Source of the DNA: a virus
Lineage: Duplodnaviria > Heunggongvirae > Uroviricota > Caudoviricetes
DNA length: 27,962 bases
Virus record (IMG/VR): IMGVR_UViG_2627853678_000006
Coordinates: 1 to 27,962 of that record
Strand: one strand, 5' to 3'
The position numbers and the translations under genes are program-made. The first letter of the stretch is position 1. The number at the start of each line of letters is the position of its first letter. The notes beneath the pieces were generated by a model. It did not search any database and had not been told where the DNA came from. It was given only the letters and a program-made list of their open reading frames with translations. Shown here piece after piece: positions 3,748-27,962 of the stretch.

Positions 3748-3765
3748 TGTGTGGTAAATGACACA
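3748..3765 (-). promoter_or_regulatory. TGT-N12-ACA dyad, candidate Ogr/Delta-type late-promoter activator site for the V-W-J-I-H operon
   Basis: tgt gtggtaaatgac aca read directly, centred about 55 bp upstream of the V ATG. P2-family late promoters carry this dyad upstream of the start site. Confidence 0.4.
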
Positions 3766-3796
3766 AATACAATTCCAATCGAAGAAAGGTAAAAGA

Positions 3797-4327
3797 ATGA
3801 GCCATCCAATTGATTATTACGCTATAGAAGAACACGCAAGAATAATTGAGCAATTATGCTGTTCATCTGAATTTTATTTACAGCGTATATATTCCACACA
3901 GAAAGTATATGATGGTTCTATAGTAACTGAATTTGAAATGGAGGAGTTATCGTACAACGGATGGTTGGAATATACCATTAGCAACAATCTTATTAGCCTT
4001 TGTACAAAACTACGAATTCTCCAAGACACTAATGAACATGAGTGGAACCCAGATTACTCACCTGAGAAAGAAGCATTTGAAGAACATGAAAATATACTTT
4101 TTGTTATAGATGGTCATGTTAAAGGTTCTATACGCGAATGCTGCAATAAAATTATTCACGCATTAAGTTTTGAGTTAACAAAAAAGACCGGCAAAAATGG
4201 AATAAAATATTGGGATGGTTCTATTATTGCTTCTGGGGTTCAAAACAAAAAAAACTGGAAAATTAAAATAGACCTTTTCCCTTTTTGCCAAAGCATAAAA
4301 AGTTATTTAAGTTTATTAAGTGCGTAA
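3797..4327 (+). CDS. Hypothetical protein, AT-rich moron antisense to the late tail operon
   Basis: ORF 3758..4327; preferred start ATG 3797 preceded by aaaggt. Visibly AT-rich versus flanking genes. No recognisable motif. Sits between S and the V late-promoter dyad, where I recall P2 orf30. Confidence 0.55.
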   Translation: MSHPIDYYAIEEHARIIEQLCCSSEFYLQRIYSTQKVYDGSIVTEFEMEELSYNGWLEYTISNNLISLCTKLRILQDTNEHEWNPDYSPEKEAFEEHENILFVIDGHVKGSIRECCNKIIHALSFELTKKTGKNGIKYWDGSIIASGVQNKKNWKIKIDLFPFCQSIKSYLSLLSA

Positions 4328-10286: not shown

Positions 10287-12051
10287 ATGAACACCACACT
10301 GACACCCGCAGATCTCGATCCCCGTCGGCAGGCCATGCTGCTGTACTTTCAGGGATACCGCGTCGCCCGCATTGCTGAAATGCTGGGCGAGAAAGTTGCA
10401 ACCGTTCATAGCTGGAAAAAACGCGACAAGTGGGGTGACTATGGGCCGCTGGATCAGATGCAGCTCACCACCGCCGCACGCTACTGCCAGCTCATTATGA
10501 AGGAGCACAAAGAAGGGAAAGATTTCAAAGAGATTGACCTGCTGGCGCGCCAGTCGGAGCGCCACGCGCGCATCGGCAAGTTTAACAATGGCGGCAACGA
10601 AGCCGACTTAAACCCTAACGTCGCCAACCGCAACAAAGGCCCGCGCCGTCAGCCGGAAAAGAATGTTTTCACCGATGAACAGATTGAGAAGCTGGAAGAA
10701 ATCTTCCATTCCTCCATGTTCAACTACCAGCGCCACTGGTGGGAAGCCGGAAAAACCAACCGCATCCGCAACCTGCTGAAATCACGCCAGATCGGCGCGA
10801 CCTTTTACTTTGCCCGTGAAGCCCTGATTGACGCTCTGCTTACCGGACGTAACCAGATTTTCCTTTCCGCCAGTAAGGCACAGGCCCACGTCTTTAAGCA
10901 GTACATCATCGACTTCGCCAAAGAAGTCGAGGTGGAGCTGAAAGGCGATCCGATGGTGCTTCCTAACGGGGCCACGCTTTACTTCCTCGGCACCAATGCC
11001 CGCACGGCCCAGAGTTACCACGGCAACCTGTATCTGGATGAATATTTCTGGATACCGAAATTCCAGGAGCTGCGCAAAGTGGCTTCCGGTATGGCTATTC
11101 ACAAAAAATGGCGACAAACCTATTTTTCCACGCCATCCAGTCTGACACACAGTGCTTATCCGTTCTGGTCCGGTGCGCTGTTCAACCGTGGGCGCAACAA
11201 AGCCGATAAGGTGGACATCGACCTGTCCCACAGAAATCTGGCCCCCGGCCTGCTGTGCGCAGACGGGCAATACCGCCAGATAGTCACCGTGGAAGATGCG
11301 GTGCGCGGCGGCTGTAACCTGTTCGACCTTGACCAGTTGCGCATGGAGTACAGCCCGGACGAATACCAGAACCTGCTGATGTGCGAGTTTGTGGACGATC
11401 TCGCGTCCGTGTTCCCTCTCAGCGAGCTGCAGGCGTGCATGGTAGACAGCTGGGAAATCTGGACCGACTTTCATGCACTGGCGCTGCGCCCGTTTGGCTG
11501 GCGCGAAGTGTGGATCGGTTATGACCCGGCAAAAGGTACGCAAAACGGCGACAGCGCCGGATGCGTGGTGGTGGCACCGCCAGCCGTGCCGGGTGGTAAG
11601 TTCCGCATTCTTGAGCGTCACCAGTGGCGCGGGATGGACTTCCGCGCCCAGCTGACGCCATCAAAAAACTTACCGAGCAGTACAACGTGACTTATATCGG
11701 TATCGACTCAACCGGCGTTGGTCACGGGGTTTACGAGAACGTGAAAGCGTTCTTTCCTGCCGTCAGGGAGTTTGTCTACAACCCCAACGTTAAAAACGCC
11801 TGGTACTCAAGGCCTACGACATTATCAGCCACCGCCGTCTGGAGTTTGACGCCGGGCACACCGACATTGCGCAGTCATTTATGGCAATCCGTCGCGCAAC
11901 CACCGCCAGTGGCAACCGCCCAACCTATGAAGCCAGCCGCAGCGAAGAAGCCAGCCACGCCGATCTGGCCTGGGCAACGATGCACGCACTGTTTAACGAA
12001 CCGCTGCAGGGCGAGTCCGCCAATACCAGCAATATTGTGGAGATTTTTTGA
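10287..12051 (+). pseudogene. P: Terminase large subunit (ATPase) P, interrupted as sequenced by two -1 frameshifts
   Basis: Frame 1 (10287..~11650) ends ...RILERHQWRGMDFRAQ. Frame 2 continues ADAIKKLTEQYNVTYIGIDSTGVGHGVYENVKAFFPAVREFVYNPNVK (ORF 11624..). Frame 3 continues RLVLKAYDIISHRRLEFDAGHTDIAQSFMAIRR...NEPLQGESANTSNIVEIF to the stop at 12049-12051. Junctions near 11648-11652 and 11796-11798 each lack one base. Restored length is about 588 aa (P2 gpP about 590). Confidence 0.85.
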
Positions 12052-13079
12052 TGGGAAAGAGTAAGAAAAACCGCACTGCGGCGACGAATCAGATCCAGCA
12101 TAAAAACCAGACTACAGCCGAAGCATTCAGCTTCGGCGATCCCGTTCCTATTCTGGACCGCCGAGAATTACTGGACTATGTGGAATGCGTACAGATGGAC
12201 CGTTGGTATGAGCCGCCCGTCAGCTTTGACGGACTGGCGCGCACCTTCCGCGCTGCCGTGCATCACAGTTCCCCGATTGCAGTAAAGTGCAACATTCTGA
12301 CCAGTACCTATATCCCTCATCCTCTGCTCAGCCAGCAAGCTTTTTCGCGTTTTGTGCAGGACTATCTGGTATTTGGCAACGCCTATCTGGAGAAACGCAC
12401 GAACCGCTTCGGTGAAGTGATCGCCCTTGAACCTGCGCTGGCAAAATACACCCGACGCGGATTAGACCTGGATACCTACTGGTTTGTGCAATACGGTATG
12501 ACAACCCAGCCGTATCAGTTCACGAAAGGCAGCATTTTTCATCTGATGGAACCGGATATTAATCAGGAGATCTACGGCCTGCCCGGTTATCTTTCTGCCA
12601 TTCCGTCAGCCCTGCTCAACGAGTCCGCCACGCTGTTCCGTCGCAAGTATTACATTAACGGCAGTCATGCGGGCTTTATCATGTACATGACCGATGCCGC
12701 GCAAAACCAGGAGGATGTGAACAACCTCCGCAATGCGATGAAAAGCGCCAAAGGGCCGGGCAACTTCCGCAACCTGTTTATGTACTCACCTAACGGCAAA
12801 AAGGACGGGCTTCAGATTATCCCGTTATCAGAAGTCGCAGCGAAGGATGAGTTTCTGAATATCAAAAATGTTAGTCGCGATGACATGATGGCGGCACACC
12901 GCGTTCCACCGCAAATGATGGGGATTATGCCTAATAATGTCGGGGGATTTGGGGATGTGGAGAAGGCTAGTAAGGTTTTTGTGATAAATGAATTAATTCC
13001 TTTGCAAAAACGATTTAGAGAAATTAATGCATGGCTCGGGGAAAAACTTATAGAATTTTCTCCATATGAGCTTAACTAA
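12048..13079 (+). CDS. Q: Portal protein Q
   Basis: 343-aa ORF (P2 gpQ about 344 aa) overlapping the terminase stop (ATGA). Confidence 0.85.
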   Translation: MMGKSKKNRTAATNQIQHKNQTTAEAFSFGDPVPILDRRELLDYVECVQMDRWYEPPVSFDGLARTFRAAVHHSSPIAVKCNILTSTYIPHPLLSQQAFSRFVQDYLVFGNAYLEKRTNRFGEVIALEPALAKYTRRGLDLDTYWFVQYGMTTQPYQFTKGSIFHLMEPDINQEIYGLPGYLSAIPSALLNESATLFRRKYYINGSHAGFIMYMTDAAQNQEDVNNLRNAMKSAKGPGNFRNLFMYSPNGKKDGLQIIPLSEVAAKDEFLNIKNVSRDDMMAAHRVPPQMMGIMPNNVGGFGDVEKASKVFVINELIPLQKRFREINAWLGEKLIEFSPYELN

Positions 13080-13128: not shown

Positions 13129-15465
13129 TTACAAATATGTGTTGCTATGTAGAGATGTGTTTATTCCATCTTTTATCTCAATTTTTGACGAAGCATACTC
13201 ATCATTCGCACTATCATCTATATCAAACTCATCTTGTAGATGAAGTGACTCATTTAACGGTTTATAAAACTCACCCATCATCATTTTGTAATGGGCAGTA
13301 TGCTCACTACATTCAAATATCTTCTGAAAAACAATTAAATATTTTTGCACAGACTCCGTATCTAAATTCATATAAAGATCATCACCTGCAAAATGGGAAC
13401 CATCATTAATCCATGACACTAAAGATTTAAATATGATTTTTTCATCACCATAAAAATGACACTCAAGCTTCCTAATATCCATCCCACCTAATATCTTAAA
13501 GTAATTCTCCAAAATCCTTCGCATTGTATTTTGTATAGTATTATTATTAATGTCTGTTCTTCTCAATTCGCACCAGAGCAAATCATAAGACGTTTTTATT
13601 GGGTTTGATTCGCACTTTTCAAGATATGAAACCTTCCCTTTTTTCCTTACAATCCAAAAAGTCTCCTCTTTCATTGCTTGATTACCGGATCTTTTGGTAT
13701 TAAAAGTCAACTCTTTATGAAAATAAATATTATGAGTAAGGAATATAATTTGCTTAATATTTCCTTCATCCTTACGAACATCCTCCATTAAATCTTTAAT
13801 CAACGAACTTACAATAAACAGAATATCACTATCTAAACTTGAAATTGGATCATCAAATACTACAACACGATCATCTAAAACACCTGATGCATTATCACTC
13901 CCTCTAACAAGGCTATAAAAGTACAAAAAAGTGATAAATGTCTTTTCTCCCTCACTAAGGGTTGTACGAGCATTATCTCCACTATCTCTTACTATCATAT
14001 AATGCTTTTTATCTTCGGAGGGTTTTAAGTAAAAATTTTTGAAGCCATAAGAGTCCAGAATCTTGTTAATTTTTGTAATAGTTGGAAGAGTACTGGTTTT
14101 ATTAGACTCAATTGCCTCAATAGCCGAAGTATTTAACATTAACTTCTTTTTGTCTTCTTCTATCCCAGATTTAAGTCCTTGTAACGTCCTATTAAATTTA
14201 TCAGATTTGCTACGGTAAGAAGTTATTTCAGACTTTAACTCCACCTTTACGATATATGCCCATATCTGCTTAGAAAGATTACTAGCCTCTACCTTTCTAT
14301 TACTATATATTTTGTTATTATTATCTATCAATAGATTTGAATCATTCAAAAAAGAAATAAAATCATCAACAACTTCACTTAAGTCACTAAAATGAACTGA
14401 TTCACTTAAAAAATTGCGTTTATTTTTTGCCAATTCAAAATTCTTGTTTAATTCAGATAATACTATCTTAGCCTTATCCTCAAACACTTCATAATTTATG
14501 AATGGAGATTTAATCGCCCTTATATCATCTATCGCCTTCAAGATATTATTAAGTTGATATTCATATTGTAAAACCAATGCATCGATTTCTCTTTTTTTTA
14601 ACTCATATGTTTTATCAAAATATGATGAAAGATTATCAAATATATTATCATTTACATCCTGCTGGCAGAATGGGCACTTGGGATTAGATTTGCTGAAATA
14701 TGTTAAACCCTCCTTAACCCAATCACTGTTATTGAGCATTGTAATTAAGTCTGAAACACTAACGTCTTTTTTCCCTAGAATACGCTCACTCCAAATTTCC
14801 CTACTTAAAATATCATCTATCCCATTGAAGGATGGAATTGTAATTGATACATGTGATGTCAATTCAGTAGAAAAAACAATTTTTGCTTTCTCAATTAACT
14901 CTGCTATTGAGCAAACTTCTGATGTATTATTTTCATACTCAGCCAACACTCTGGCTTTAAATTTTTCACTACTATTCCTTAATCCCTCAAAAGCCTTTGA
15001 GAACACATTGTCATGTTTTACTTTTTGCTTCCAACATGAATCTTTAAAAGATTTTTCATGGTCTTCGATTTTTTTAATAACGCCTAATTCATTATCACCA
15101 CCATCTATTAACTTTCCCTTTGCTATAATAGATTCCATTAGCTTATTTTTTTCTTCTTTAAGAGATATTAGTTTCTCTTCATCCTCCTTAAGATCGCTAC
15201 CAAGGGTAAATACACCTTTAATTTTATCTTGACTAAAATTTCTTTCAACAAAATCTTTATTATATACGTAGCTTATTAAAGATATATTATTTTTCCATTT
15301 AATCGGACATGTTGGATATTGTTCAGGGTCATTAATAATTTTACTTATAGTTGTTTTACCTGCACCATTAGCTCCATATAAATAGTTAAATTTAGAAAGT
15401 CCATGTAAAAGCTGCGTAGGGCCATTATATGAGCCTACCTTGTCAATAACTACCTCTTCAATCAT
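13129..15465 (-). CDS. RloC/PrrC-like anticodon-nuclease-type protein: ABC ATPase with coiled-coil zinc hook and C-terminal nuclease-like domain (function inferred)
   Basis: 778-aa AT-rich ORF with GAGG Shine-Dalgarno. Walker A GANGAGKTT at the N-terminus, CPFC zinc-hook motif in a long Lys/Glu-rich predicted coiled coil, LSEGEK signature, Walker B VVVFDDPISSLD, H-loop FLTHN, then about 200 aa containing R-x3-E (RRILENYF) and downstream His residues reminiscent of the PrrC catalytic triad. Confidence 0.55.
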   Translation of the reverse strand: MIEEVVIDKVGSYNGPTQLLHGLSKFNYLYGANGAGKTTISKIINDPEQYPTCPIKWKNNISLISYVYNKDFVERNFSQDKIKGVFTLGSDLKEDEEKLISLKEEKNKLMESIIAKGKLIDGGDNELGVIKKIEDHEKSFKDSCWKQKVKHDNVFSKAFEGLRNSSEKFKARVLAEYENNTSEVCSIAELIEKAKIVFSTELTSHVSITIPSFNGIDDILSREIWSERILGKKDVSVSDLITMLNNSDWVKEGLTYFSKSNPKCPFCQQDVNDNIFDNLSSYFDKTYELKKREIDALVLQYEYQLNNILKAIDDIRAIKSPFINYEVFEDKAKIVLSELNKNFELAKNKRNFLSESVHFSDLSEVVDDFISFLNDSNLLIDNNNKIYSNRKVEASNLSKQIWAYIVKVELKSEITSYRSKSDKFNRTLQGLKSGIEEDKKKLMLNTSAIEAIESNKTSTLPTITKINKILDSYGFKNFYLKPSEDKKHYMIVRDSGDNARTTLSEGEKTFITFLYFYSLVRGSDNASGVLDDRVVVFDDPISSLDSDILFIVSSLIKDLMEDVRKDEGNIKQIIFLTHNIYFHKELTFNTKRSGNQAMKEETFWIVRKKGKVSYLEKCESNPIKTSYDLLWCELRRTDINNNTIQNTMRRILENYFKILGGMDIRKLECHFYGDEKIIFKSLVSWINDGSHFAGDDLYMNLDTESVQKYLIVFQKIFECSEHTAHYKMMMGEFYKPLNESLHLQDEFDIDDSANDEYASSKIEIKDGINTSLHSNTYL

Positions 15466-15597
15466 CCTCTAATCCTCAAAAAACAGATTAATCCTATCAA
15501 ATCAATGATAATAGAAGACATTACTTACCTAATTACAAGGTGATCATTTATACAGCTGTAAATAAATCAGGCTAATCATCTATTTGTCATAACGCGC

Positions 15598-15626
15598 GCT
15601 CGTATCCCCGCCACGCCTGCCCGCTT
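15598..15626. other. Putative cos (cohesive end) site
   Basis: Reverse complement of 15601-15625 reads agcgggcaggcGTGGCGGGGAtacg, resembling the G-rich P2/186 cohesive-end sequence as I recall it (GGCGxGGCGGGGAAAGCA). Located between Q and gene A as expected. Confidence 0.4.
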
Positions 15627-15705
15627 TGTGTAGTGGTTTTCATGCACCTGCATGACATAAGTAAAAGCCCGCCAGAACTGGCGGGACTGAGCAAAAACGA
15701 TCCTT

Positions 15706-15735
15706 TTGCGATCATTCATTTTCATGCGCTATAGT
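15706..15735 (+). promoter_or_regulatory. Candidate sigma70 promoter for the three-gene operon
   Basis: TTGCGA (15706-15711), 18-bp spacer, TATAGT (15730-15735); about 100 bp upstream of an AGGAG Shine-Dalgarno and ATG at 15836. Confidence 0.35.
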
Positions 15736-15835
15736 CATGCAACAAACGCATACGAACCATATGGTTAGATTACTCATCAAGTCAGATGGATTTTCAGGCA
15801 GATTGCCACAGCAATTGTAAAGGAGCGAGATTGAA

Positions 15836-16837
15836 ATGGGTGGAGAGACTTCGGCTATACAACGAGTCGCGGGTAAGATTTCTGATGATATTTTCTCAGT
15901 GTTCAAATGGGATCGTGCCGCTAGAGCGGACATGAATTGGGATTGTTGCCAAGAGGCTCATTCCAAGAAAACACATCCAAGCGATGTTGTATTTTTCTAC
16001 ATAGATCCATATGAGGAGGAAATGGTCTATCTCAACACAGACCTCAAAAGCTATGCAGAAGGTACTATTGGGAAAAAAATAGTCGAGGGAGCTTTAACAT
16101 CGCTTGCTTTAGCTACCGAATGTGCAAATGTCAGTGAAGAATGGCGATTGAAATATGTTCATGATGATTCTTTAGGTTATAACGTAAGAGGGTTATTATT
16201 CTTATATAACCATGATAATTTATATGATAAAGACTTCTATGAGAATATTACAAAAAAATTAGATCACTCATCTATAAATTGCCCTCCAAACATCAAACTA
16301 CATTTGCTTGACCCTTATAAAATATCAGATTTGATAAACATATCTTCTGACATAACTAAGTTAATTGGTTCAGGAAAACTTCCTCAACCTGATAAGTTCA
16401 CATATTATTATCCAGATCTTTCCCTAACAAGAATAAAGCACCCTATTAATCAGACAACACCTGCAACAATTGAATTATTAACATCACCATACATTATAAT
16501 AAAGCATGAGGCTTTCAGTTGGCTCAGGGATAAAAACCCTGAGGGATATGTTGTTTATTACAATCAACCGGGGGATTCAGTAGACGAATTCGTTTACTTC
16601 TTTGATATGTTATCAACTTATCAGATATTAACCGAAGGTAAACCAATCGTATTACGCCATTGTCACATTCACCCAAATGAAAATGCCATTCATCATTTTG
16701 AAAGAGCGAAAAAGAAATACAGCACAGACTGGCTCTTAGGCGAGGATGAAAGACTTTTTCTTAAAATTGACTTCGACAAGACAGACAAAATTGTTGTTGA
16801 ATATAATCTTGAACAAATCGGCATGGAGCAACGATAA
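15836..16837 (+). CDS. Hypothetical protein, first gene of three-gene operon; possible PD-(D/E)xK-like motif
   Basis: 333-aa AT-rich ORF with AGGAG Shine-Dalgarno. Contains VVFFYID-x11-TDLK and a His-rich stretch RHCHIHPNENAIHH. Stop overlaps the next start (TAATG). Confidence 0.75.
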   Translation: MGGETSAIQRVAGKISDDIFSVFKWDRAARADMNWDCCQEAHSKKTHPSDVVFFYIDPYEEEMVYLNTDLKSYAEGTIGKKIVEGALTSLALATECANVSEEWRLKYVHDDSLGYNVRGLLFLYNHDNLYDKDFYENITKKLDHSSINCPPNIKLHLLDPYKISDLINISSDITKLIGSGKLPQPDKFTYYYPDLSLTRIKHPINQTTPATIELLTSPYIIIKHEAFSWLRDKNPEGYVVYYNQPGDSVDEFVYFFDMLSTYQILTEGKPIVLRHCHIHPNENAIHHFERAKKKYSTDWLLGEDERLFLKIDFDKTDKIVVEYNLEQIGMEQR

Positions 16838-17916
16838 TGGCTAAAAAACTATATTTCGCAACTGATAAAAATATTTATGATGCATTACATCATAAAAGGA
16901 TAACCGCTGCAAAGTTGCATGAATTATTGTTGAATCGAGGTGTGTTTTTATCACCAGAACTCGACAAGGAAATACTAATCGAGGAAATATCCAAACTTCC
17001 TCACGGATTTAATGAATTAGAACACATAAAAAAACTGGTCAAAACATATGACCCAAGGGAAAGCACTACTAGTGTGAGCTTCCAAACCTCAACAAATCAG
17101 GCCGAATTAAAAAGTGCTGCTGAAGCACTAAAAAAAACATGCTCCCCTAGTAAAGGTCAAAGCCTGAATATTGTAGCTAAAAAAGATGGCTCGCTTACAG
17201 TAGAATACAAATATGAAGAAATAGACCTGTCTAAAACTGCATTACGTCAGATCGACAAGCGGAATGTTATAATAGAACTTCGCCCTGGAGCTGACAAAGT
17301 TGAAGTACGTATGCCTCAAAACCCCGAGGCAAAAAAAGTTATTGAGAGCTTGCAAAACGAGCTATCTAAAATCAAGTCCGAACCTATCGAGCGCTTCGAA
17401 ATATCATTACTAGCAATAACTGATCCTACATTGCGAAGTCAGTTTTTTCAGGAATTAATGAATGGTCTACGCGGTTATGAGACTGATGACGTAACAAAAG
17501 TCGAATTAAATCGCAGTACTGATGCTAGTGAGGATGAAGACAAGGAAGAAACTATTGATACCGGATTTGTTAAGAAAGCCGTCCTTAATGGTGAAGGGGT
17601 AAATAGTTCAGCTATATTTTCTCAACTACATGAGAAAGGTTATTATATCGGGCGTATTGCATGGTCTTCAAAGCCGACAAGTGGAATTGGAGACAGAATC
17701 AACGTCGAAGCATTTTTCAAAGACTCAGAAAAATGCTGTGACTTTGCCTATCAAATTAAAGGTATAAACAATCAAAAAGAAGACGGTTTCAATGTAACCA
17801 TTCGCGCGGCAACAGCACAAGAGAAAAAACATATTAGTGAATTAATTGAGTCCGCCGCTGAAAATGCCTATAATATAATAATAGGATCAGAGGTGAACGA
17901 AGATGAAAAAGGTTAA
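16837..17916 (+). CDS. Hypothetical protein, second gene of three-gene operon
   Basis: 359-aa ORF, translationally coupled on both sides; acidic central linker (STDASEDEDKEE). No motif I can name. Confidence 0.75.
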   Translation: MAKKLYFATDKNIYDALHHKRITAAKLHELLLNRGVFLSPELDKEILIEEISKLPHGFNELEHIKKLVKTYDPRESTTSVSFQTSTNQAELKSAAEALKKTCSPSKGQSLNIVAKKDGSLTVEYKYEEIDLSKTALRQIDKRNVIIELRPGADKVEVRMPQNPEAKKVIESLQNELSKIKSEPIERFEISLLAITDPTLRSQFFQELMNGLRGYETDDVTKVELNRSTDASEDEDKEETIDTGFVKKAVLNGEGVNSSAIFSQLHEKGYYIGRIAWSSKPTSGIGDRINVEAFFKDSEKCCDFAYQIKGINNQKEDGFNVTIRAATAQEKKHISELIESAAENAYNIIIGSEVNEDEKG

Positions 17917-18586
17917 ATGGCTTAAGTTAAACATACGGCTTGAGTTTGAAACAGCCGTTAGACGTCTTTCTCTTGATTCTTTTACAGAGGATAAAGGGAA
18001 AGGGTTCATTTTTGATAAAATACGCCATGATTTTGCAAATGGTCGCTTTGTCGAGCGTATTGTTTATCATGATAAAATATTAAGCTTTGACGGAAGCGAA
18101 ACTACCGTTGAAAGAATCGAATATCGCACCACAAATTTTAGCGTGGCTTTAGACTCTCTTCCTGTAATGCAGATTACTAACCCACCCAGAACTTTAAAGC
18201 CTTTTTCGCAGGCTTTGGTAAAAAATCTTGGCTTAGGTGTTAGTTTGGAAGAAATTGACATAAACCCTATAGACTGGCTTAATGAAATATCTTCAAGTGT
18301 AAATATCAATTTAACACAACTTGATATTTCAAGGGTTAGAGTTTCTGATTACGCCACAGCTAAAATGCAAATAATTGGCAGCAATGATCTTAGGAAGTAT
18401 TATAAAGAAGAATTAGAGGGTAAAAAAATAAGAATTGACAGGCTTGTTTGCTCTGTTAATTCATTAGAATATTCCGGTAAGCTCAAGATCACCAATAGCG
18501 GCCTTGCTTATATTGATGTTAGAAATGAGAATGAGTTTACGAAAATCGTTTTTGATACGTTAAAAAAAGTCACCCTTCAATCATAG
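17903..18586 (+). CDS. Hypothetical protein, third gene of three-gene operon
   Basis: 227-aa ORF overlapping the previous gene by 14 nt; followed by a strong hairpin. Confidence 0.75.
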   Translation: MKKVKWLKLNIRLEFETAVRRLSLDSFTEDKGKGFIFDKIRHDFANGRFVERIVYHDKILSFDGSETTVERIEYRTTNFSVALDSLPVMQITNPPRTLKPFSQALVKNLGLGVSLEEIDINPIDWLNEISSSVNINLTQLDISRVRVSDYATAKMQIIGSNDLRKYYKEELEGKKIRIDRLVCSVNSLEYSGKLKITNSGLAYIDVRNENEFTKIVFDTLKKVTLQS

Positions 18587-18681: not shown

Positions 18682-18915
18682 TTAATGCAGCCAGCTATCG
18701 TCCTCCCACACCTTCTGCATAATTTTCATCACTTGTTTTCTTTCTTCGTCCAGTTGCAGTCCGGTCAGTTCCACACCGTTAGAGCTACCTTTGCGGATAC
18801 GAATTACCGTTTTGGGATACAGGGGGCGCAGATTGCGGTAAAGCTCGGATTCAAGGGCGTCCAGGGTAGACTGGCTAATTTTCTGCTCTTTATCGATCAT
18901 TATTTCAATGCGCAT
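18682..18915 (-). CDS. DinI-family protein
   Basis: Start MRIEIMIDKEQ... at ATG 18913-18915 with GAGGTGA Shine-Dalgarno; about 77 aa. Resembles E. coli DinI (MRIEVTIAK...) in length and sequence. Confidence 0.7.
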   Translation of the reverse strand: MRIEIMIDKEQKISQSTLDALESELYRNLRPLYPKTVIRIRKGSSNGVELTGLQLDEERKQVMKIMQKVWEDDSWLH

Positions 18916-18925
18916 AAAAGTCACC

Positions 18926-19114
18926 TCAGCTGATGACATCCATTGAGCGGTTGTATTCGTGGCTTCTGATTTTTGCCATGAGTTCATCAGTCAATTCAGA
19001 AACCCACTGCAGAGCCAGCCCCTTCTCTTCATCACTACACTCACTAGCCGCTACAAGCTTAAGAAAAAAATCAATGCGCTGGAGCTTCAAAGACTCCAAA
19101 AAATAGTCCTGCAT
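18926..19114 (-). CDS. Small hypothetical protein, first gene of SOS-regulated pair; possibly a Tum-like antirepressor module
   Basis: 62-aa ORF from ATG 19112-19114 with AGGAGG Shine-Dalgarno. Its stop overlaps the Shine-Dalgarno of the DinI-like gene. LexA box lies just upstream. Confidence 0.5.
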   Translation of the reverse strand: MQDYFLESLKLQRIDFFLKLVAASECSDEEKGLALQWVSELTDELMAKIRSHEYNRSMDVIS

Positions 19115-19157
19115 TTTTCCTCCTATGACACCACAAGCAATACTGTACACATAACCA

Positions 19158-19173
19158 CTGTTTATATTTACAG
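19158..19173. promoter_or_regulatory. LexA (SOS) box overlapping the promoter of the small-ORF/DinI-like operon
   Basis: CTGTTTATATTTACAG read directly; fits CTGT-N8-ACAG with an AT-rich spacer. About 45-60 bp upstream of the 19114 start, overlapping candidate TTTACA / TATACT elements on the minus strand. Confidence 0.6.
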
Positions 19174-19267
19174 TATATAATAATCTTACTGATGTAAAAC
19201 GTTTTTTTACGTTCATCAGCCTGATATGCCTGGTATTATTAAGAGCACGAATTGTTAACCCGCGTAA

Positions 19268-21682
19268 TTAATACAGATCCCGCCACTTATCATCTTCCTG
19301 CAAACGCTGGTTCCGATAGAAGATACGCAGGCCTGCTCCTGACGGAATACTGCCGCCGCGAAGGAGTAAATCGACCTCTTTCTCGCTGCCATCAAATCCT
19401 CTGGACTTCAGTTCATAGACGAGCTGCTGTCGTTGATGGTCTGTAATTCGCTGTTTGTAGTCTCTACGCCGTTTCGGTTTCACCAGGCGTAACCTTGCAG
19501 CCAGTTCCCGGCGTTCTTTTTTGTTCATACTGTGCAGGTAATCGTGCAACTCCTTGTCATCCATACGGGTGATATCCGTTCTGGTATCCCCATCAGCTGA
19601 TTTGTCTTTCCCTTGTTGGTACAAATTTTCAGCAAGGGGACAGTTATTGCCACGAGTCCAAGGGGCGCAAGCGCCCTGGTCGGCTGCCGCCTCCTGAACG
19701 TCAACGGCCTTACGAACCATTTTCCATTTCATTGCATGAGTGCAGATCTTGCCCTGTACAATGGGTGACCAGATGCCATAAATACGAATACCGTGATCGC
19801 CATAAGCGGTCGGCTCTTCGTTAATTTCATAAGCTGTTCTGATAAGGTGATATTTGCGGGGAACCAGTACGCCGCCCTGCTTCATGATGTAGGTGGCAAA
19901 ACAGCCAGCATCAGCGGCAGCCAGGATGGCATCAAGGCGCGGGTTATCCAGTACCGGCGCACCTGCTTTTTTGTCACCCTGTTGCCTTGCCGCCTGACCA
20001 GCCAGCAATCGCAGTTCACGGTAAGCCTGACGCCCCGGAATGCCAAAGAAGCGGAATTGCTGAACACGATGCAGAGACGCCCAGGCATTAACGTATTCAG
20101 CGTTATCACGCAGAGATTTACCCGTTTCCTTGCTGATCTCGCCAGCCAGACCACGCCCGTCAATGTTCTTACTGATGTATTTCGCGATGTAGCTAGTCGG
20201 CGTTCCTTTGCGCGGGTTTATCAGCTCAGACTTAAAGCGTGGCCCCGTGTTATTACCCAGCTCCTCGCGGTCTTCACGGATAGCAAACTTACGCAACAAT
20301 GCAGTAATGGCGCGGCGGTCTTTTTTGCGCATGAAACACAACAGGTGCCAGTGAACTGTGCCGTCATGATGCGGCTCAGCCACCCGCACGCCATACCAGC
20401 GCAACCCGGCTTTGTGCATCGCCTTACGAAATGCAGCAAACATGCCGACCAGATAATCACTGCTTTGTCTTACCGTCGCATTTGTCCAGGTCGGGTTGGG
20501 CCTGCCGTTATTTAGCGTGGAATGGAAACGTGACGGACAGGTGATGGTGTAGAAAACGGCGCAGTCACCGCGCATTTCCGCGATAAGCTCCAGACCTTTA
20601 ACACAGGCCATCATCTCATTGCGGCGATGCGCAGGGTTGCTGCTGCTGGCGTTTACCACATCCTCCATGTCCAGCGTGTCGCCGTCTTCGTTCACCAGTT
20701 CATGAGAACGGAAAAACTCCAGCGACTTACGGCGCTGCTCACGTTTATGCATCACGGCTTCATAGCTGACATAGGGAGATGCTTTTTTGCTGACCAGGCA
20801 AACAGCACGCAACTGCTCTTCCCGCCATTCGCAACGCATCTTCCACAATTTCCGATACCACCAGTCGGCGCACAGCATACGCGCCAGCGACCCCGGAATG
20901 AGTTCATAGGGCACGGGTTTACGGCGGTTTCTTTTCCGGCGGAGTTGCTCAAACGCAGGCGGTATGACATCCAGTCGCAGGGTTTCCGCCGCCACCTTTT
21001 CCCATGTCTTGCGGATTTCTTCTGGCTTAACGTCATCGGTGGCATACAAATCGCCACAAGCGGCATCAAGGCACATGCTCATATGCGCAGCTACCAGGGT
21101 GGACAGGCGTTTCACCTGATCCTGACTCATTTCAGGCAGGATCAGCAGACCGTCCAGCCCTTCATGGCTTGCCATAAAGCGAAAAGAAGTGGATAGCTGA
21201 CTGTCGCGTACATGCTCCAGTCGTTCCAGACATGGCTTAATCGTCTCACGCAAATAGCGGGAATAAGCCTTTGGCCTGCCCAGGCTGCTGAAGTATTCAA
21301 TACGTTGCATCAGCGGCTTGCTGATATGGGAAGGCTGGGCGTTGACGTCCGCCAGAATGACCATATCCGGATTAAAACGCTGCTGCTCATGCGCCAGCTT
21401 TGCCCAACTAATGAGCTTATCCTGTTCCATTTCGCGCTGGACAGGATCACGGGATTCATTAAAGAAATAACGCTCCCAGACCTGATCACTCAGCGCCTCA
21501 CGGCGCAGCTGTTCCTGCTCGTTATCGGCAGCGTACAGAGTGATCAGGTTTGAAAGCGCAGAAACCGGCGCAACTTCCGCCGGGTCCAGATAAGGGTTAA
21601 TGGCCTTTTTCGGGCTGTTCCATGAGAATGCTGCGGCGACCTCGTTAAAGCCGCTGCAGTTGTTCATATCAGCATGGCTCAT
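19268..21682 (-). CDS. A: Replication initiation protein A (rolling-circle replication endonuclease)
   Basis: 804-aa ORF (P2 gpA about 761 aa), last gene of the early operon. Confidence 0.85.
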
Positions 21683-24586: not shown

Positions 24587-24658
24587 GATGCAACATTCCT
24601 CTTTTAGCAATGATTAATCAGGATGAATACTGATCGTTTGTATTATGTGAACACTGCA

Positions 24659-24687
24659 AACATACGATCACATCATGAAATCGTCAA
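24659..24687 (-). promoter_or_regulatory. Candidate lytic promoter (pR-like) for the apl-cII operon
   Basis: On the minus strand TTGACG (24682-24687), 17-bp spacer, TATGTT (24659-24664). Reads leftward toward apl from a position close to the cI start, consistent with face-to-face 186-type switch promoters. Confidence 0.35.
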
Positions 24688-24705
24688 GGTAAAAGTTCAC
24701 TTGGA

Positions 24706-25275
24706 GTGACCATGAATTTGGAAAAAGGCGGTCGTGGGGCCATAGAGCGCATGGTTGAAGCCTATGGTTTCAAGACAAGACAAGCTTTGTGTGATCATTT
24801 GGGCATTTCTAAAAGCACCTTAGCCACGCGCTATATGCGTGATTCATTCCCGGCAGAATGGGTAATCCAATGTGCACTTGAAACCGGCACGTCGCTAGAG
24901 TGGCTAACTACTGGGCAAGGTTCAAAAGAAAGTTCACAAAAAGAAAACACAAAAGAGATCGAAAGGAAGATTTTATCAAGCGGAAAACTACTTCCTGATG
25001 GTTACTACATTTTCGACAACAACTTTTTGCCTGAAAAACTAAAAAAACCTTTTGTTGTGATCGATGGCGCATCAGAGTTTATCTGTGATTCGGATTATGA
25101 GGATGTACGTGATGGTAAGTGGATCGTTGATATTGATGGCGAGGTTGCTATCAGGAATCTGACAAGACTGCCGGGACGTCGTCTAAATGTCGATGGTGGC
25201 AGCAGTTCCTTTGAATGCAAAATAGATGAAATTGATATCATAGGAAAAATTAGAAGCGCGATCGTCAATTATTAA
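24706..25275 (+). CDS. cI: CI immunity repressor (186-type)
   Basis: 189-aa ORF (186 CI about 192 aa) with N-terminal HTH-like region (...[43 protein letters not shown]); divergent from apl and upstream of int. Confidence 0.75.
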
Positions 25276-25298
25276 AATTAATGTATAAGGAAATAAAT

Positions 25299-25484
25299 AT
25301 GTTTTATAAATCTATACATATCCTACTTATTTGTTTATTTATTACTTTACCTATTACAAGTTTTGCAAAAAATTATCCATGTTCTGGTAAGAAAGGGGGA
25401 GTTTCACATTGTACATCTGATGGGAAGTTCGTTTGCAATGATGGAACGCAAAGCAAGTCAAAGAAAATATGTTCTAAAAACTAA
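25299..25484 (+). CDS. Small secreted Cys-rich peptide (hypothetical)
   Basis: Preferred start ATG 25299 with AAGGAA Shine-Dalgarno. Signal peptide [23 protein letters not shown], then a 38-aa Lys-rich mature part with four Cys. AT-rich. Confidence 0.5.
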
Positions 25485-25486
25485 GG

Positions 25487-26827
25487 TTGCTTCATATGAA
25501 TAATGATATGACTTTTGAAAACAGAGATGAGTATAATAGAAAAATCATTGCTGAAAAAATAATAAGCTTACTCGAGTCCCCCTTAAAAATATCCCCTATT
25601 GTTATCGATGGGGACTGGGGTACCGGTAAAACCGAATTTTCAAAAAAATTAGCGGCATTGATTGAAAAAAATGAATCTGGGCATAAAGTAGTATATATTG
25701 ATGCATTTACTGAAGATCATAATGATGCTCCCATACTTACTATAATGGCTGCAATAGTTGCATTATATCCAGAGAGTGAAAAGAAGGAATTAATATCAAA
25801 GGCATTACCAGCATTGAGATTTGGACTTAAAACTGTACTCAAAGCTGGCGCTGGGTGGATTTTAAAACAAAATGCAGATGATATTGCGGATGAATTCGAA
25901 GATGCTATTAAAGATGCGGCTAACTCAGCTATAGATGGTACTGTAGAAGCACTGCTTGATGATCATATTGAAGCAAAGAAACATTTGCTTGCTCTCAAGG
26001 AAGTACTTGCTGAACTAACTAGCGAAAATAAAATAACAATTATCATTGACGAACTTGACCGTTGTAAACCAAGCTTTGCCATCTCTATCATCGAAAATAT
26101 AAAACATGTTTTTGACACTGAAAATCTTAACTTCTTGTTAGTTGCTAACATCTCACAATTGAAAGCATCAATAAATCATATTTACGGTGCAGGTGTTGAC
26201 TCAGAAAGATATCTTGATAAATTTATAAAATTCACTTACAGCCTGCCAGTGACTTTCACTGAAAACAATTACGATAAAATTTTGGCTTCGAACTCTCATT
26301 TTAGAATGCTATGTAACGAGTCTGAAAGACTAAAAGAAATTGGAGAAAGTAGTATTCATATAGTTCAAAAATTTATCGAACTAAAAGGCTTGTCGCTACG
26401 GGAAGTTGAAACCTTATCAAGATATCTAGAAATTTATCAAATTTTATCTCAAAATGAAATCAGCAATAAATTTATACCAGGCTATTGCTGTTATCGAACC
26501 CTTGCAGTAATTCTTTATTCGTTTGGTCGTGAACTGGCCCTTAACTACGTAGAAGATAAAATAGATGCACAATTAATAATTAATTTCTTCGGTGTTAATA
26601 GACTCCCATATCAGACAGATCAATATAACATCAACATCTACTATTATGCATTATTTGGTATAACTTATAAATATATGCCAGAAGGTTCTCCTTTACTTCC
26701 TTCTGAAAACGATGAAAAAAACAGATGGGCTGAAATAAGTGATTATCATATTTTAAAAGGAAATGCAGGTGTAGAAGACCCTGTTAGAATATTCAAAAAC
26801 ACCTTAAAAGTTTTCTTGCTCCAATGA
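25487..26827 (+). CDS. KAP-family P-loop NTPase
   Basis: 446-aa AT-rich ORF. Walker A in KAP form (IVIDGDWGTGKTEFSKKLA) and Walker B IIIDELDRCKP, the DELDRC hallmark of KAP NTPases. Starts 2 nt after the small peptide gene. Confidence 0.7.
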   Translation: MLHMNNDMTFENRDEYNRKIIAEKIISLLESPLKISPIVIDGDWGTGKTEFSKKLAALIEKNESGHKVVYIDAFTEDHNDAPILTIMAAIVALYPESEKKELISKALPALRFGLKTVLKAGAGWILKQNADDIADEFEDAIKDAANSAIDGTVEALLDDHIEAKKHLLALKEVLAELTSENKITIIIDELDRCKPSFAISIIENIKHVFDTENLNFLLVANISQLKASINHIYGAGVDSERYLDKFIKFTYSLPVTFTENNYDKILASNSHFRMLCNESERLKEIGESSIHIVQKFIELKGLSLREVETLSRYLEIYQILSQNEISNKFIPGYCCYRTLAVILYSFGRELALNYVEDKIDAQLIINFFGVNRLPYQTDQYNINIYYYALFGITYKYMPEGSPLLPSENDEKNRWAEISDYHILKGNAGVEDPVRIFKNTLKVFLLQ

Positions 26828-26860
26828 AATGTTTGATTGAAGATCTTTAAACATTGACCA

Positions 26861-26876
26861 CTGTTCAAACATACAG
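26861..26876. promoter_or_regulatory. LexA-like box (CTGT-N8-ACAG) upstream of int; may be chance
   Basis: CTGTTCAAACATACAG read directly. Spacer is less AT-rich than consensus, and about 0.4 chance matches to the bare pattern are expected in 28 kb. Confidence 0.25.
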
Positions 26877-26884
26877 TTAAATTT

Positions 26885-26909
26885 AGTCCTCAGACATGAG
26901 GACTTTTTT
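26885..26909 (+). terminator. Stem-loop plus T-run immediately upstream of int; the 3' arm contains the int Shine-Dalgarno
   Basis: agtcctc (26885-26891) pairs with gaggact (26898-26904), 6-nt loop, then ttttt and ATG at 26910. GAGGA at 26898-26902 is the only Shine-Dalgarno for int. Confidence 0.5.
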
Positions 26910-27962
26910 ATGGCAGTACGAAAACTCACCACAGGAAAATGGCTGTGCGAATGTTATCCCGCCGGACGTAGTGGACGTCGTGTGCGTAAACAATTCGCCA
27001 CCAAAGGCGAAGCTCTGGCTTTTGAGCGTCACACGATGGAAGAAACCGAAGCAAAGCCTTGGCTAGGTGAATCAGTGGATCGTCGAACACTGAAAGACGT
27101 GGTTGAGCTATGGTTCAAATTACATGGTAAATCTCTGACTGCTGGGCAGCATGTCTATGACAAATTGCTGCTGATGGTTAACGCTCTGGGCAATCCTCTT
27201 GCAACCGATCTCACCTCTAAAATGTTTGCCCACTATCGAGATAAACGCCTGACAGGTGAGATCTACTTCAGCGAGAAATGGAAGAAAGGAGCCAGCCCGG
27301 TCACCATTAACCTGGAGCAAAGCTATCTAAGTAGTGTTTTTAGCGAACTATCCCGCCTGGGCGAATGGTCGTATCCAAACCCACTGGAGAACATGCGAAA
27401 ATTCACCATCGCAGAAAAAGAGATGGCATGGCTTACCCATGAGCAGATTGTTGAACTGCTGGCTGATTGCAAACGTCAGGACCCAATTCTGGCACTGGTA
27501 GTCAAGATATGCTTAAGCACAGGCGCACGCTGGCGAGAAGCAATAAACCTTACCCGATCACAGGTGACTAAATACCGAATTACCTTTGTAAGAACGAAGG
27601 GGAAGAAAAACAGAAGCATCCCTATCAGTAAAGAGCTTTATGAAGAGATCATGGCGCTTGATGGGTTCAATTTCTTCACAGACTGCTATTTTCAATTTTT
27701 ATCCGTGATGGAAAAAACGTCAATCGTGCTCCCTCGCGGTCAACTGACACACGTTCTGCGCCATACGTTTGCGGCACATTTCATGATGTCGGGTGGAAAT
27801 ATCCTTGCTTTGCAAAAAATCCTCGGACATCACGATATAAAAATGACTATGCGTTACGCTCATCTGGCACCGGATCATCTGGAAACGGCGCTCCGTTTCA
27901 ATCCTCTGGCAACGCTGCCAAGTGGCGACAAAGTGGCGGCAGCGGTTGGCATTACCCCGTAA
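26910..27962 (+). CDS. int: Tyrosine integrase (P2/186 family)
   Basis: 350-aa ORF with tyrosine-recombinase motifs (ARWREAINL, HVLRHTFA, MRYAHL). Stop codon is the last three bases of the window, so any att site lies outside. Confidence 0.85.
   Translation: MAVRKLTTGKWLCECYPAGRSGRRVRKQFATKGEALAFERHTMEETEAKPWLGESVDRRTLKDVVELWFKLHGKSLTAGQHVYDKLLLMVNALGNPLATDLTSKMFAHYRDKRLTGEIYFSEKWKKGASPVTINLEQSYLSSVFSELSRLGEWSYPNPLENMRKFTIAEKEMAWLTHEQIVELLADCKRQDPILALVVKICLSTGARWREAINLTRSQVTKYRITFVRTKGKKNRSIPISKELYEEIMALDGFNFFTDCYFQFLSVMEKTSIVLPRGQLTHVLRHTFAAHFMMSGGNILALQKILGHHDIKMTMRYAHLAPDHLETALRFNPLATLPSGDKVAAAVGITP

Follow-up and report, generated by a model that had tools for sequence, protein, structure and literature searches.

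Background

PifA of the F plasmid is responsible for the exclusion of phage T7, which is triggered by gene 1.2 or gene 10 products. In the Vibrio phage K139 the glo gene is said to have been described by Nesper in 1999 as coding for a periplasmic protein with an immunity or exclusion function. PifA is one of the members of the KAP superfamily of P-loop NTPases (Pfam PF07693; Aravind et al. 2004), in which transmembrane helices placed between Walker A and Walker B are typical of many proteins and are not obligatory. Anti-phage defence has been reported for the KAP-domain proteins Tmn and Reve, and the anti-phage action of EF_KAP depends on its Walker B motif (PMC12632615). Reve is a single-gene KAP system of the P4 hotspot and of satellites (de Sousa et al. 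2026) and, as the one P4-borne KAP system which has been tested (plasmid pFD425), it gave no protection against T7. Fixed cargo positions are also described for P2-related phages. A hotspot between cI and int was reported for K139-like phages by Rousset 2022 (PMC9122126), and 8% of the P2 defence systems sit between integrase and primase (de Sousa 2026, PMC13586616).

Here we analyzed two genes which a 186-like E. coli prophage of the P2 family carries in its cI-to-int interval, within a stretch of 27,962 nucleotides (the window), and we document their family membership, anatomy, modularity and genomic associations. The profile matches for the two genes together are to KAP_NTPase, PDC-S20, YdcA/PRK10040 and two PHROG families. 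The distribution of the genes was surveyed in 81 genome loci, 79 viral contigs with a KAP gene and 80 viral contigs with the peptide gene.

Position and composition of the insert

The AT-rich cargo insert occupies positions 25276 to 26909 of the + strand. It has a length of 1.6 kb and no counterpart in phage 186, and its GC content is 31–35%, against 42–53% in the directly adjacent early region and 52–61% in most of the phage backbone. Upstream of it lies the cI repressor gene of 186 type (24712–25275, + strand), the first gene of the lysogenic operon, whose start in the RefSeq annotation corresponds to 24712 and whose product matched Phage_CI_repr and Phage_CI_C in the Pfam profile search (PF07022, 3.1e-33; PF16452, 6.2e-29). 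Downstream of it the tyrosine integrase gene (26910–27962, + strand; Int_N and Phage_integrase, PF24624 at 2.1e-32 and PF00589 at 6.8e-22) forms the prophage end, which has rcdA/ybjJ as its neighbour in the host chromosome. The cI and int genes of phage 186 share one base and leave the slot empty, so the 1.6 kb represents a real insertion. The DNA is 100% identical to that of three complete E. coli genomes, and at least 80% of the insert is present in 43 of 5426 complete E. coli genomes.

Two co-directional, AT-rich ORFs had been placed between cI and int in the first-pass annotation, and both of them are present on the + strand. Their starts, which were taken from the longest ORFs (25281 and 25487), probably do not hold; the RefSeq annotation of identical DNA starts at 25299 and 25496, the family profiles begin aligning there too, and these positions are likely the true starts. 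The ATG at 25299 has AAGGA 7 nt upstream, and the ATG at 25496 has TAAGG 9 nt upstream. The gap between cI and the smaller gene, which codes for a peptide, is 23 nt, and that between the peptide gene and the NTPase gene is 11 nt.

Besides the empty state of 186, the slot of different relatives contains ydcA only, KAP only, ydcA with KAP, a 160-aa protein with KAP, or ydcA with the secreted orf1(S) as in HP2. Cargo which is variable or absent at the same backbone position and has an atypical composition marks the cI-int slot as a moron hotspot.

Regulatory signals

The sole terminator-like site of the cI-ydcA-KAP stretch in the terminator scan comes after the KAP gene. It is a hairpin, AGTCCTCA-GACA-TGAGGACT and then T5 (26885–26909, + strand), which was recognised by the terminator scan along with RNA folding, stands directly 5′ of the int ATG and is terminator-like for the cI-ydcA-KAP transcript. 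The ribosome-binding site of int is located inside its 3′ arm, and compensatory base changes are found in E. coli W and in the BL21/L002 lineages. Because the intergenic gaps are so short and this hairpin appears only after the NTPase gene, it is reasonable to expect that both genes are expressed from the cI promoter in the lysogen.

A promoter-like site (TTGACC, 18 nt, TAAATT; 26854–26883, + strand) was found upstream of int by promoter scan. It contains an exact LexA-box motif, CTGT-N8-ACAG, at 26861–26876, of which the window has two copies where 0.27 would be expected. The site is kept in E. coli, Serratia and Yersinia relatives regardless of the upstream cargo, and it is a part of the phage backbone and not of the cargo.

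Anatomy and family of the KAP NTPase

The larger gene (25496–26827, + strand) encodes a soluble KAP-family P-loop NTPase of 443 aa. Its assignment to this family, first made from the motifs, is borne out by the match to Pfam KAP_NTPase (PF07693), which has 174.5 bits against a cutoff of 20 (E 3.8e-51) and covers the whole profile (positions 2–290 of 293). The two motifs are also as first described. Walker A is GDWGTGKT at residues 39–46 (25610–25633, + strand) with the catalytic Lys K45, and Walker B is DELDRC at residues 185–190 (26048–26065, + strand), contained in IIIDELDRC (182–190). Residues G39, W41, G42, G44 and K45 of Walker A and all the six residues of DELDRC are invariant in 32 homologues. 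In total the searches yielded more than 1700 homologues, which range from Enterobacterales to distant phyla. In PADLOC the PDC-S20 model PDLC04956 was matched at 1.1e-171 over 1–447 of 450, and the three other PDC-S20 models also match the protein; a PDC entry is a candidate called from genomic association and not a validated system.

Between Walker A and Walker B there is a conserved helical insert (residues 110–154; 25823–25957, + strand), at the site where many KAP proteins carry transmembrane helices. A transmembrane insert was rejected here, as no window of 19 residues exceeds a hydropathy of 1.6 and the maximum is 1.1. The segment is amphipathic and not hydrophobic, its pLDDT is below 50, and its identity to homologues is 44–91%, which for most of them equals or exceeds that of the rest of the NTPase core. 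The C-terminal domain (residues 321–443; 26456–26824, + strand) is hypervariable, having 11–31% identity to homologues versus 43–82% for the N-terminal 320 residues. In the predicted structure it is all helical with pLDDT of 77–96, and it is presumed to be the specificity or recognition part. No effector domain could be recognised in the NTPase. Among solved structures the KAP profile had no sequence match at E up to 0.01, and the fold comparison alone was informative. In the searchable literature no paper naming ‘PDC-S20’ and no experiment on the family was found, and a search for KAP and prophage since 2023 gave no functional data.

Anatomy and relatives of the YdcA-like peptide

The smaller gene (25299–25484, + strand) encodes a putative secreted mini-protein, probably of the YdcA family, with a precursor of 61 aa. 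It had been described earlier as a secreted-type, Lys-rich peptide with four Cys, and hydropathy and composition agree with this description. The putative signal peptide (25299–25367, + strand) has a Lys at position 4 and a hydrophobic core with a Kyte-Doolittle value of 2.5 over 15 residues, and it ends in SFA before a K. The mature part (25368–25481, + strand) is 38 aa long; four of its residues are Cys, eight are Lys and two are acidic. The RefSeq name of the identical protein is ‘YdcA family protein’; phrog_6000 is matched at 4.5e-26 and NCBIfam PRK10040.1-2 (NF007463) at 4.8e-25 with 87.1 bits, which is just under the equivalog cutoff of 93 bits.

Across the homologues in phages of Haemophilus, Moraxella and E. 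coli, 25 alignment columns are invariant (23 of the 38 mature residues), and the four Cys are invariant among homologues; the peptide also occurs in phages of Moraxella, Acinetobacter and Pseudomonas. The YdcA-type small protein is found in a sizeable minority of E. coli genomes. The family annotation gives E. coli K-12 a chromosomal paralogue, ydcA, outside any prophage, and a literature search on YdcA function, even in E. coli K-12, gave nothing functional. Both lobes of Legionella Dis2 (PDB 7muc_AN) were matched by a YdcA family profile at 2.3e-7, and the peptide is homologous to these lobes.

Distribution of the two genes

The two genes had been treated as a pair in the first-pass annotation. 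The pair does recur, in 9 of the 28 KAP-bearing cI-int viral contigs, but a functional pairing is not supported by the surveys. The arrangement cI-ydcA-int without NTPase accounts for 73 of the 80 peptide-bearing viral contigs, so that the peptide is the usual occupant of the slot. The peptide is absent from the other 19 KAP contigs of the cI-int type and from all ~48 lambdoid contigs, and within 6 kb of the KAP gene no YdcA-like ORF was found in any of the 81 genome loci. An obligate pairing is rejected by these three surveys.

The individual arrangements show the same modularity. The BL21/C43 prophage is cI-ydcA-int without KAP, and Haemophilus HP2 is cI-ydcA-orf1(S)-int. The order cI-KAP-int without any partner is found in Serratia, in E. 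coli W (where KAP is 28% identical) and in 9 viral contigs, and in Yersinia-type prophages (7 viral contigs) KAP stands with a different, cytoplasmic partner of 160 aa which has no match in Pfam. In lambdoid prophages (~48 of the 79 viral contigs) KAP has no partner and lies antisense in the interval from Q to the lysis genes, and in a P4-like satellite it likewise stands alone, after the primase. At 21 of 80 species-level loci it belongs to a Type I restriction operon, where it is flanked by hsdS and hsdR or adjoins one of the two.

In the BL21-type slot the KAP cassette has 121 nt of unrelated DNA in its place, with the junctions at the ends of the KAP ORF. A deletion leaving remnants of the KAP gene in this peptide-only prophage was rejected; the two have no more than the final ~8 nt of the ORF in common, and therefore it is a cassette swap, which may have gone either way. 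The mature peptide stays nearly constant while the adjacent KAP drops to 71% and 56% identity. Since the peptide is upstream in each of three diverged KAP lineages in E. coli (100/88%, 71% and 56% identity), a lineage-specific partnership may still exist. As a whole, the peptide and the NTPase are separate and interchangeable cargo modules and not a two-gene system.

Functional interpretation

The best explanation, to which we give a rough probability of 0.6 as a whole, is that the slot acts as a modular accessory-gene hotspot with two independent cargo genes (morons), and that the NTPase is most likely a soluble, stand-alone, single-protein anti-phage sensor. Its conserved N-terminal NTPase part, whose fold is closest to that of RdrA, would be a nucleotide-driven switch that works as an oligomer, a phage component or a change caused by the phage would be recognised by the hypervariable C-terminal helical domain, and the activated NTPase would then stop the infection. 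As this domain is hypervariable, the targets probably differ between NTPase variants. The peptide would be exported via its Sec-type signal peptide and would fold in the periplasm; the folded form would be a cationic domain of 38 residues with two disulfides, alike in kind to each Dis2 lobe, and the peptide would most likely act alone at the cell envelope as a lysogenic-conversion or superinfection-exclusion factor.

For the peptide there is a serious competitor, whose chances we put somewhat below even: the YdcA-like protein may be a conversion factor of the host-fitness or virulence type (envelope stress, serum or antimicrobial tolerance, surface machines) with no part in phage exclusion. 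The chromosomal paralogue in E. coli K-12 and the occurrence of the same domain in the Legionella secretion-machine cap speak for it. The mature sequence is also highly conserved across Haemophilus, Moraxella and E. coli phages, because of which a conserved host target fits better than a phage arms race. The position of the gene argues the other way, as it follows cI directly in P2-family phages of different genera, which is the same place as that of glo in K139, a gene for a periplasmic protein to which immunity/exclusion is ascribed (PMC4870250).

It is rather unlikely that the NTPase is not anti-phage at all and serves in modulation of integration and excision, as a restriction-system guard, as an addiction module or in host physiology. 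This would agree with the lack of a visible effector domain, with the position next to int and with the embedding in Type I restriction operons elsewhere, which could mean a regulatory role towards those enzymes. However, such embedding is a defence association in itself, as with PrrC, the family occupies three unrelated cargo slots known for defence genes (cI-int, Q-lysis and P4 satellite), and a hypervariable C-terminus is typical of arms-race proteins. The gene is also absent from phage 186 and many relatives, and hence the phage can complete its life cycle without it.

Still less probable is a functional analogue of PifA, that is a membrane-associated abortive infection protein which excludes T7-like phages. 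The link with PifA drawn in the first-pass annotation is valid at the level of the KAP superfamily, to which both proteins belong, since the PADLOC PifA profile is matched at E 2e-15 by residues 8–255. Orthology was rejected, as this match is to profile positions 11–255 of ~720 alone (~245 positions, about one third of the length, the NTPase core alone) and the 443-aa protein has no transmembrane or strongly hydrophobic segment. Reve, though of a different family, gave no protection against T7, and the hypervariable C-terminal domain again points to targets which probably differ. A two-component system, in which the periplasmic peptide senses or blocks the phage at the envelope and signals to or is controlled by the cytoplasmic NTPase, is very improbable, for although the genes are co-directional and closely spaced and the pair recurs with KAP of 100, 88, 71 and 56% identity in E. 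coli-type 186-like prophages, each gene mostly occurs without the other, the peptide does not co-vary with KAP, KAP is exchanged as a cassette of its own and the NTPase has no membrane segment for meeting a periplasmic partner.

Two wider readings can be added, which jointly we hold to be unlikely: that YdcA-like mini-proteins are widespread, unrecognised periplasmic factors of prophages, and that PDC-S20 NTPases are PrrC-like ‘second-line’ guards. In the first, YdcA-like proteins, whose genes immediately follow that of the repressor in P2-family phages from several genera, may use a Dis2-type, disulfide-pinned domain to dock beneath the outer membrane, where they would keep out competing phages or other DNA-transfer machines. 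In the second, PDC-S20 guards may have arisen as parts of Type I restriction operons, and their capture by prophages would have turned them into free-standing sensors.

Significance

If the defence function of the NTPase is true, a large catalogued candidate family would be validated, and a minimal soluble KAP protein without an effector domain would join the class, which would make it a convenient model for phage sensing by KAP NTPases. The variants of the slot (peptide only, NTPase only, both or neither) are natural experimental controls. The link between YdcA and Dis2 gives the first structural handle on this small protein. Current concepts are unchanged by these results, as prophage defence hotspots and KAP-domain defence proteins are already known.

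Comparison with known systems

PifA, QatA, Tmn, EF_KAP and Reve all have, like the present NTPase, the KAP P-loop core with the motifs G-x-W-G-x-GKT and D-E/D-L-D/E-R, and the P-loop region alone is common to it and the validated KAP proteins (PifA 2e-15, QatA 2e-10, Reve E 0.003). The QatA value is from PADLOC; in NCBIfam QatA has 42.9 bits against a 600-bit cutoff. QatA needs QatBCD, and the locus is not a QatABCD system, as the neighbours here are cI, ydcA and int. Tmn and EF_KAP possess transmembrane helices (two after Walker A in Tmn), which this NTPase does not have, and it was not assigned to Tmn, there being no PADLOC tmn match at E up to 1. Identity with Reve was rejected too; blastp of its sequence, taken from the supplementary dataset of the de Sousa et al. 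2026 preprint, gave E 0.003 for a 14-residue match at Walker A alone, and the Reve ORF has 586 aa. An exact-string search of the supplements of that preprint with back-translated DELDR gave nothing.

In the fold comparison the N-terminal part of the NTPase is closest to the ring-forming RdrA of RADAR. RdrA is a KAP-type ATPase of ~800–850 aa which forms heptameric rings and works with the deaminase RdrB, whereas the NTPase has 443 aa and a sequence identity to RdrA of 11–16%; no gene for an RdrB-like adenosine deaminase is adjacent, and the locus is not a RADAR system. PrrC of the prr (EcoprrI) Type I restriction locus has the same hsdS-hsdR position as the NTPase homologues of the 21 restriction loci, and both are P-loop proteins with a variable C-terminal part. 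The anticodon-nuclease domain of PrrC is not detectable in the NTPase, as the PrrC profile matches the P-loop alone (E 0.003), and the restriction genes of the PrrC locus have no equivalent beside the NTPase in the window.

The phage protein shares with the YdcA family (E. coli ydcA, PRK10040) and with Dis2/Lpg0823 a putative signal peptide followed by a motif ending in G-K-F-V-C-N-D-G. Dis2 is an outer-membrane-proximal component of the Legionella Dot/Icm secretion machine, in whose cap it takes part with two lobes and five disulfides, whereas the phage protein has one lobe and four Cys.

K139-like Vibrio phages have, as here, a P2-related genome with variable cargo downstream of cI and upstream of int. 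Their cargo includes defence systems and a periplasmic protein (glo), and they differ from the present prophage in phage lineage, host and cargo genes. In PADLOC the NTPase is a full-length member of the single-gene ‘phage defence candidate’ PDC-S20, from which it differs in nothing structural; the ‘S’ class implies a stand-alone gene, and homologues stand alone in lambdoid, P4 and 186-like slots.

Cargo insert between cI and int

The prophage belongs to the 186 / P2 family of E. coli, and its integration site adjoins rcdA and ybjJ. The first-pass annotation had placed two genes in the cI-to-int interval, which was confirmed by the ORFs, the profile matches and the flanking genes. On the plus strand, cI (24712-25275; matches to both Pfam CI domains) is followed by a 61-aa ydcA-like gene (25299-25484), a 443-aa KAP NTPase gene (25496-26827), a hairpin with a T-run (T5) which ends at the int ATG (26885-26909) and int (26910-27962); the apl/cox-like gene, cII, fil and the replication genes lie on the opposite strand. 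Both ORFs of the annotation are real, but the starts it gave are those of the longest ORFs; the true starts are likely 25299 and 25496, to which the ribosome-binding sites point, and at which RefSeq starts the genes and the profile alignments begin. The GC content is 31-35% in the two cargo genes, 52-61% in most of the phage backbone and 42-53% in the neighbouring early region. In phage 186 itself a one-base overlap joins cI and int, and the 1.6 kb is thus an insertion into the lysogenic operon. The DNA of 24600-27100 is found at 100% identity in three complete E. coli genomes and at about 99% in six more. The pair of peptide and NTPase genes is present in 43 of 5426 complete E. coli genomes, and 791 E. 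coli genomes have a match to the insert, the majority of them to the peptide gene alone.

Two modules rather than one unit

The two genes had been read as a pair, and the survey of their co-occurrence showed that they do not form a unit. The arrangement cI-ydcA-int was found in 73 of the 80 viral contigs having the peptide, and only five of the 80 have the NTPase; conversely, no YdcA-like ORF was found within 6 kb of the NTPase in 81 genome loci. The peptide-only form occurs in BL21/C43(DE3), at the chromosomal site that the pair occupies. Its comparison with the pair form shows a cassette swap: 121 nt of unrelated DNA stand in for the NTPase ORF, and the two junctions fall in the final bases of ydcA and of the NTPase gene. 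The mature peptide is nearly constant beside NTPases of 100, 71 and 56% identity, and hence does not co-vary with them.

KAP NTPase: family and anatomy

The assignment to the KAP family was borne out by the Pfam KAP_NTPase profile (E 3.8e-51, across essentially the whole profile). In PADLOC the protein is a full-length member of the single-gene candidate family PDC-S20 (E 1.1e-171), of which no mention was found in the searchable literature. The KAP family and the secreted-type peptide of the first-pass interpretation stood and the two-gene unit did not; the proposed relation to PifA has a PADLOC match (2e-15) which is confined to the NTPase core, as is the match to QatA (2e-10).

Walker A (GDWGTGKT) and Walker B (DELDRC) are invariant across 32 homologues. 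A search for transmembrane segments in the 443 residues found none; where many KAP proteins have membrane helices, residues 110-154 form a conserved amphipathic insert which is left unresolved in the structure model. Within the family the first 320 residues are 43-82% identical and the last 123 only 11-31%, a pattern which would be expected for a recognition domain under diversifying pressure.

Genomic settings of the NTPase

The context was surveyed in 79 viral contigs having NTPase homologues. The most frequent layout (about 48 contigs) is that of lambdoid prophages, where a solitary KAP gene runs antisense in the interval from antiterminator Q to the lysis genes. The order cI-ydcA-KAP-int was found in nine contigs, cI-KAP-int with the partner absent in nine, and cI, an unrelated cytoplasmic 160-aa protein, KAP and int in seven; two more have the cI-int slot with other spacing, and one has an int-cI slot with KAP reversed in orientation. 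These layouts are confirmed by annotated examples from Serratia, Yersinia, Citrobacter and E. coli lambdoid prophages, a P4-like satellite of Salmonella houtenae and E. coli W (cI-int slot, KAP 28% identical). The 160-aa protein, which replaces the YdcA-like gene in those seven contigs, is also seen in a Yersinia rohdei prophage (locus L087, 6494-6976); this conserved Yersinia-type partner has no Pfam match.

Among the genes immediately adjoining the homologues, HsdS and HsdR domains occur more often than any other family; one or both of them neighbour the homologue, in Type I restriction operons, at 21 of 80 species-level loci. The homologue lies between hsdS and hsdR in L007, L010, L015, L021, L026, L027, L042 and other genome loci; in the clearest (such as L007, L010, L021 and L042) hsdS ends 9-24 nt upstream and hsdR starts directly after. 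This is the position which the PrrC anticodon nuclease occupies in the prr locus. The distribution is that of a stand-alone mobile gene associated with restriction operons and with three cargo slots of mobile elements (cI-int, Q-lysis and P4 satellite).

YdcA-family peptide

The upstream Cys-rich peptide was recovered as described, with features of a secreted precursor. Its N-terminus is basic and is followed by a hydrophobic core and the cleavage-type site SFA|K; the predicted mature part has 38 aa, among them 4 Cys and 8 Lys. In RefSeq it is annotated as a YdcA family protein, and it has matches to NCBIfam PRK10040 (YdcA; E 4.8e-25, slightly below the equivalog cutoff) and phrog_6000. Phages of E. 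coli, Haemophilus and Moraxella share the invariant motif [12 protein letters not shown]...GKFxCxDG...S.SK..C. In Haemophilus phage HP2 an unannotated 60-aa YdcA-like ORF (L003 3420-3602; NC_003315 2489-2671, minus strand) has its ATG overlapping the cI stop codon, and is followed by orf1(S) (254 aa, signal peptide and tRNA_anti-like (OB-fold) domain) and then int.

A search of solved proteins with the YdcA-family profile gave one match, Legionella Dis2 / Lpg0823 (PDB 7muc chain AN; E 2.3e-7, both lobes), and each lobe is, by sequence comparison, a YdcA-family homologue; no statement of this relationship was found in the literature searched. Dis2 consists of two disulfide-pinned lobes and belongs to the Dot/Icm cap, close to the outer membrane, and its structure paper reported neither structural relatives nor a function (PMC8486379). 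The peptide would be exported, form disulfides and act beneath the outer membrane; phage exclusion and host fitness are about equally likely as its role.

Promoter-like region before int and other cargo

Two exact LexA-box motifs (CTGT-N8-ACAG) occur in the window, where 0.27 would be expected by chance. One (26861-26876) is enclosed by a conserved promoter-like site just before int (TTGACC, 18 nt, TAAATT; 26854-26883, plus strand). Relatives in E. coli, Serratia and Yersinia retain both the box and the hexamers regardless of the upstream cargo, and the hairpin before int has compensatory changes among relatives. These features suggest that the cI transcript is kept out of int, which would have an SOS-controlled promoter to itself, whereas in phage 186 the two genes overlap. 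Transcription of the cargo genes would start together with cI at pL and stop at the hairpin downstream of the NTPase gene. A second conserved inverted repeat (26828-26855, ATGTTTG...CAAACAT) directly follows the NTPase stop codon, reads ATGTATG...CATACAT in other lineages by compensatory change and overlaps the -35-like hexamer with its 3' arm; it may be bound by a protein or form a stem in the RNA.

The other LexA-box motif (19158-19173) lies downstream of the 3' end of gpA (19268-21682, minus strand), before tum/DinI-like genes. Two small genes are called here on the minus strand, 18926-19216 and 18682-18987, which correspond to a hypothetical and a DinI-like gene in the identical prophage of RefSeq; the longest ORF of the first contains the motif in its 5' portion. 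The layout is reminiscent of the tum promoter in phage 186, which LexA controls.

Between portal (12048-13079) and gpA lies the classical P2 hotspot (13129-18586, GC 29-43%), which contains a 778-aa AAA_13 ATPase matching PADLOC PDC-S06 (1e-266) and a three-gene set matching Hp1, Hp2 and Hp3 (1e-157 to 1e-248), so that the prophage carries at least three defence or candidate-defence loci. An AT-rich 189-aa ORF in the tail-gene region (3758-4327, plus strand; local GC 35-45%), without a match in Pfam or PADLOC, may be a further cargo gene in a tail-gene hotspot.

Probable defence role and comparison with known systems

Judged from its sequence and setting, the NTPase is likely a defence gene. 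It would oligomerise like RdrA, recognise its target through the C-terminal domain and block infection in a nucleotide-dependent manner; no effector domain is visible in it. Among KAP-type proteins, defence was shown for Tmn, and that of EF_KAP and three metagenomic KAP proteins depended on Walker B (PMC12632615). Reve, a single gene of P4 hotspots, gave strong protection against Drexlerviridae and none against T7 or lambda (PMC13586616 and preprint data). Identity with Reve was rejected, the extracted Reve sequence having only the Walker A motif in common with the NTPase, and direct transfer of the EF_KAP, Tmn and Reve results is not warranted. The find itself is unsurprising; what makes it worthwhile is that PDC-S20 is a large family still at candidate status. 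The cI-int position has precedent in P2-related phages: Rousset et al. described this hotspot in K139-like Vibrio phages (PMC9122126), and De Sousa et al. located 8% of P2 defence systems between integrase and primase (PMC13586616). The NTPase belongs to a candidate family that is already in the catalogues; the small secreted protein next to it is far more common and independent of it, and slots of this kind have been described before.
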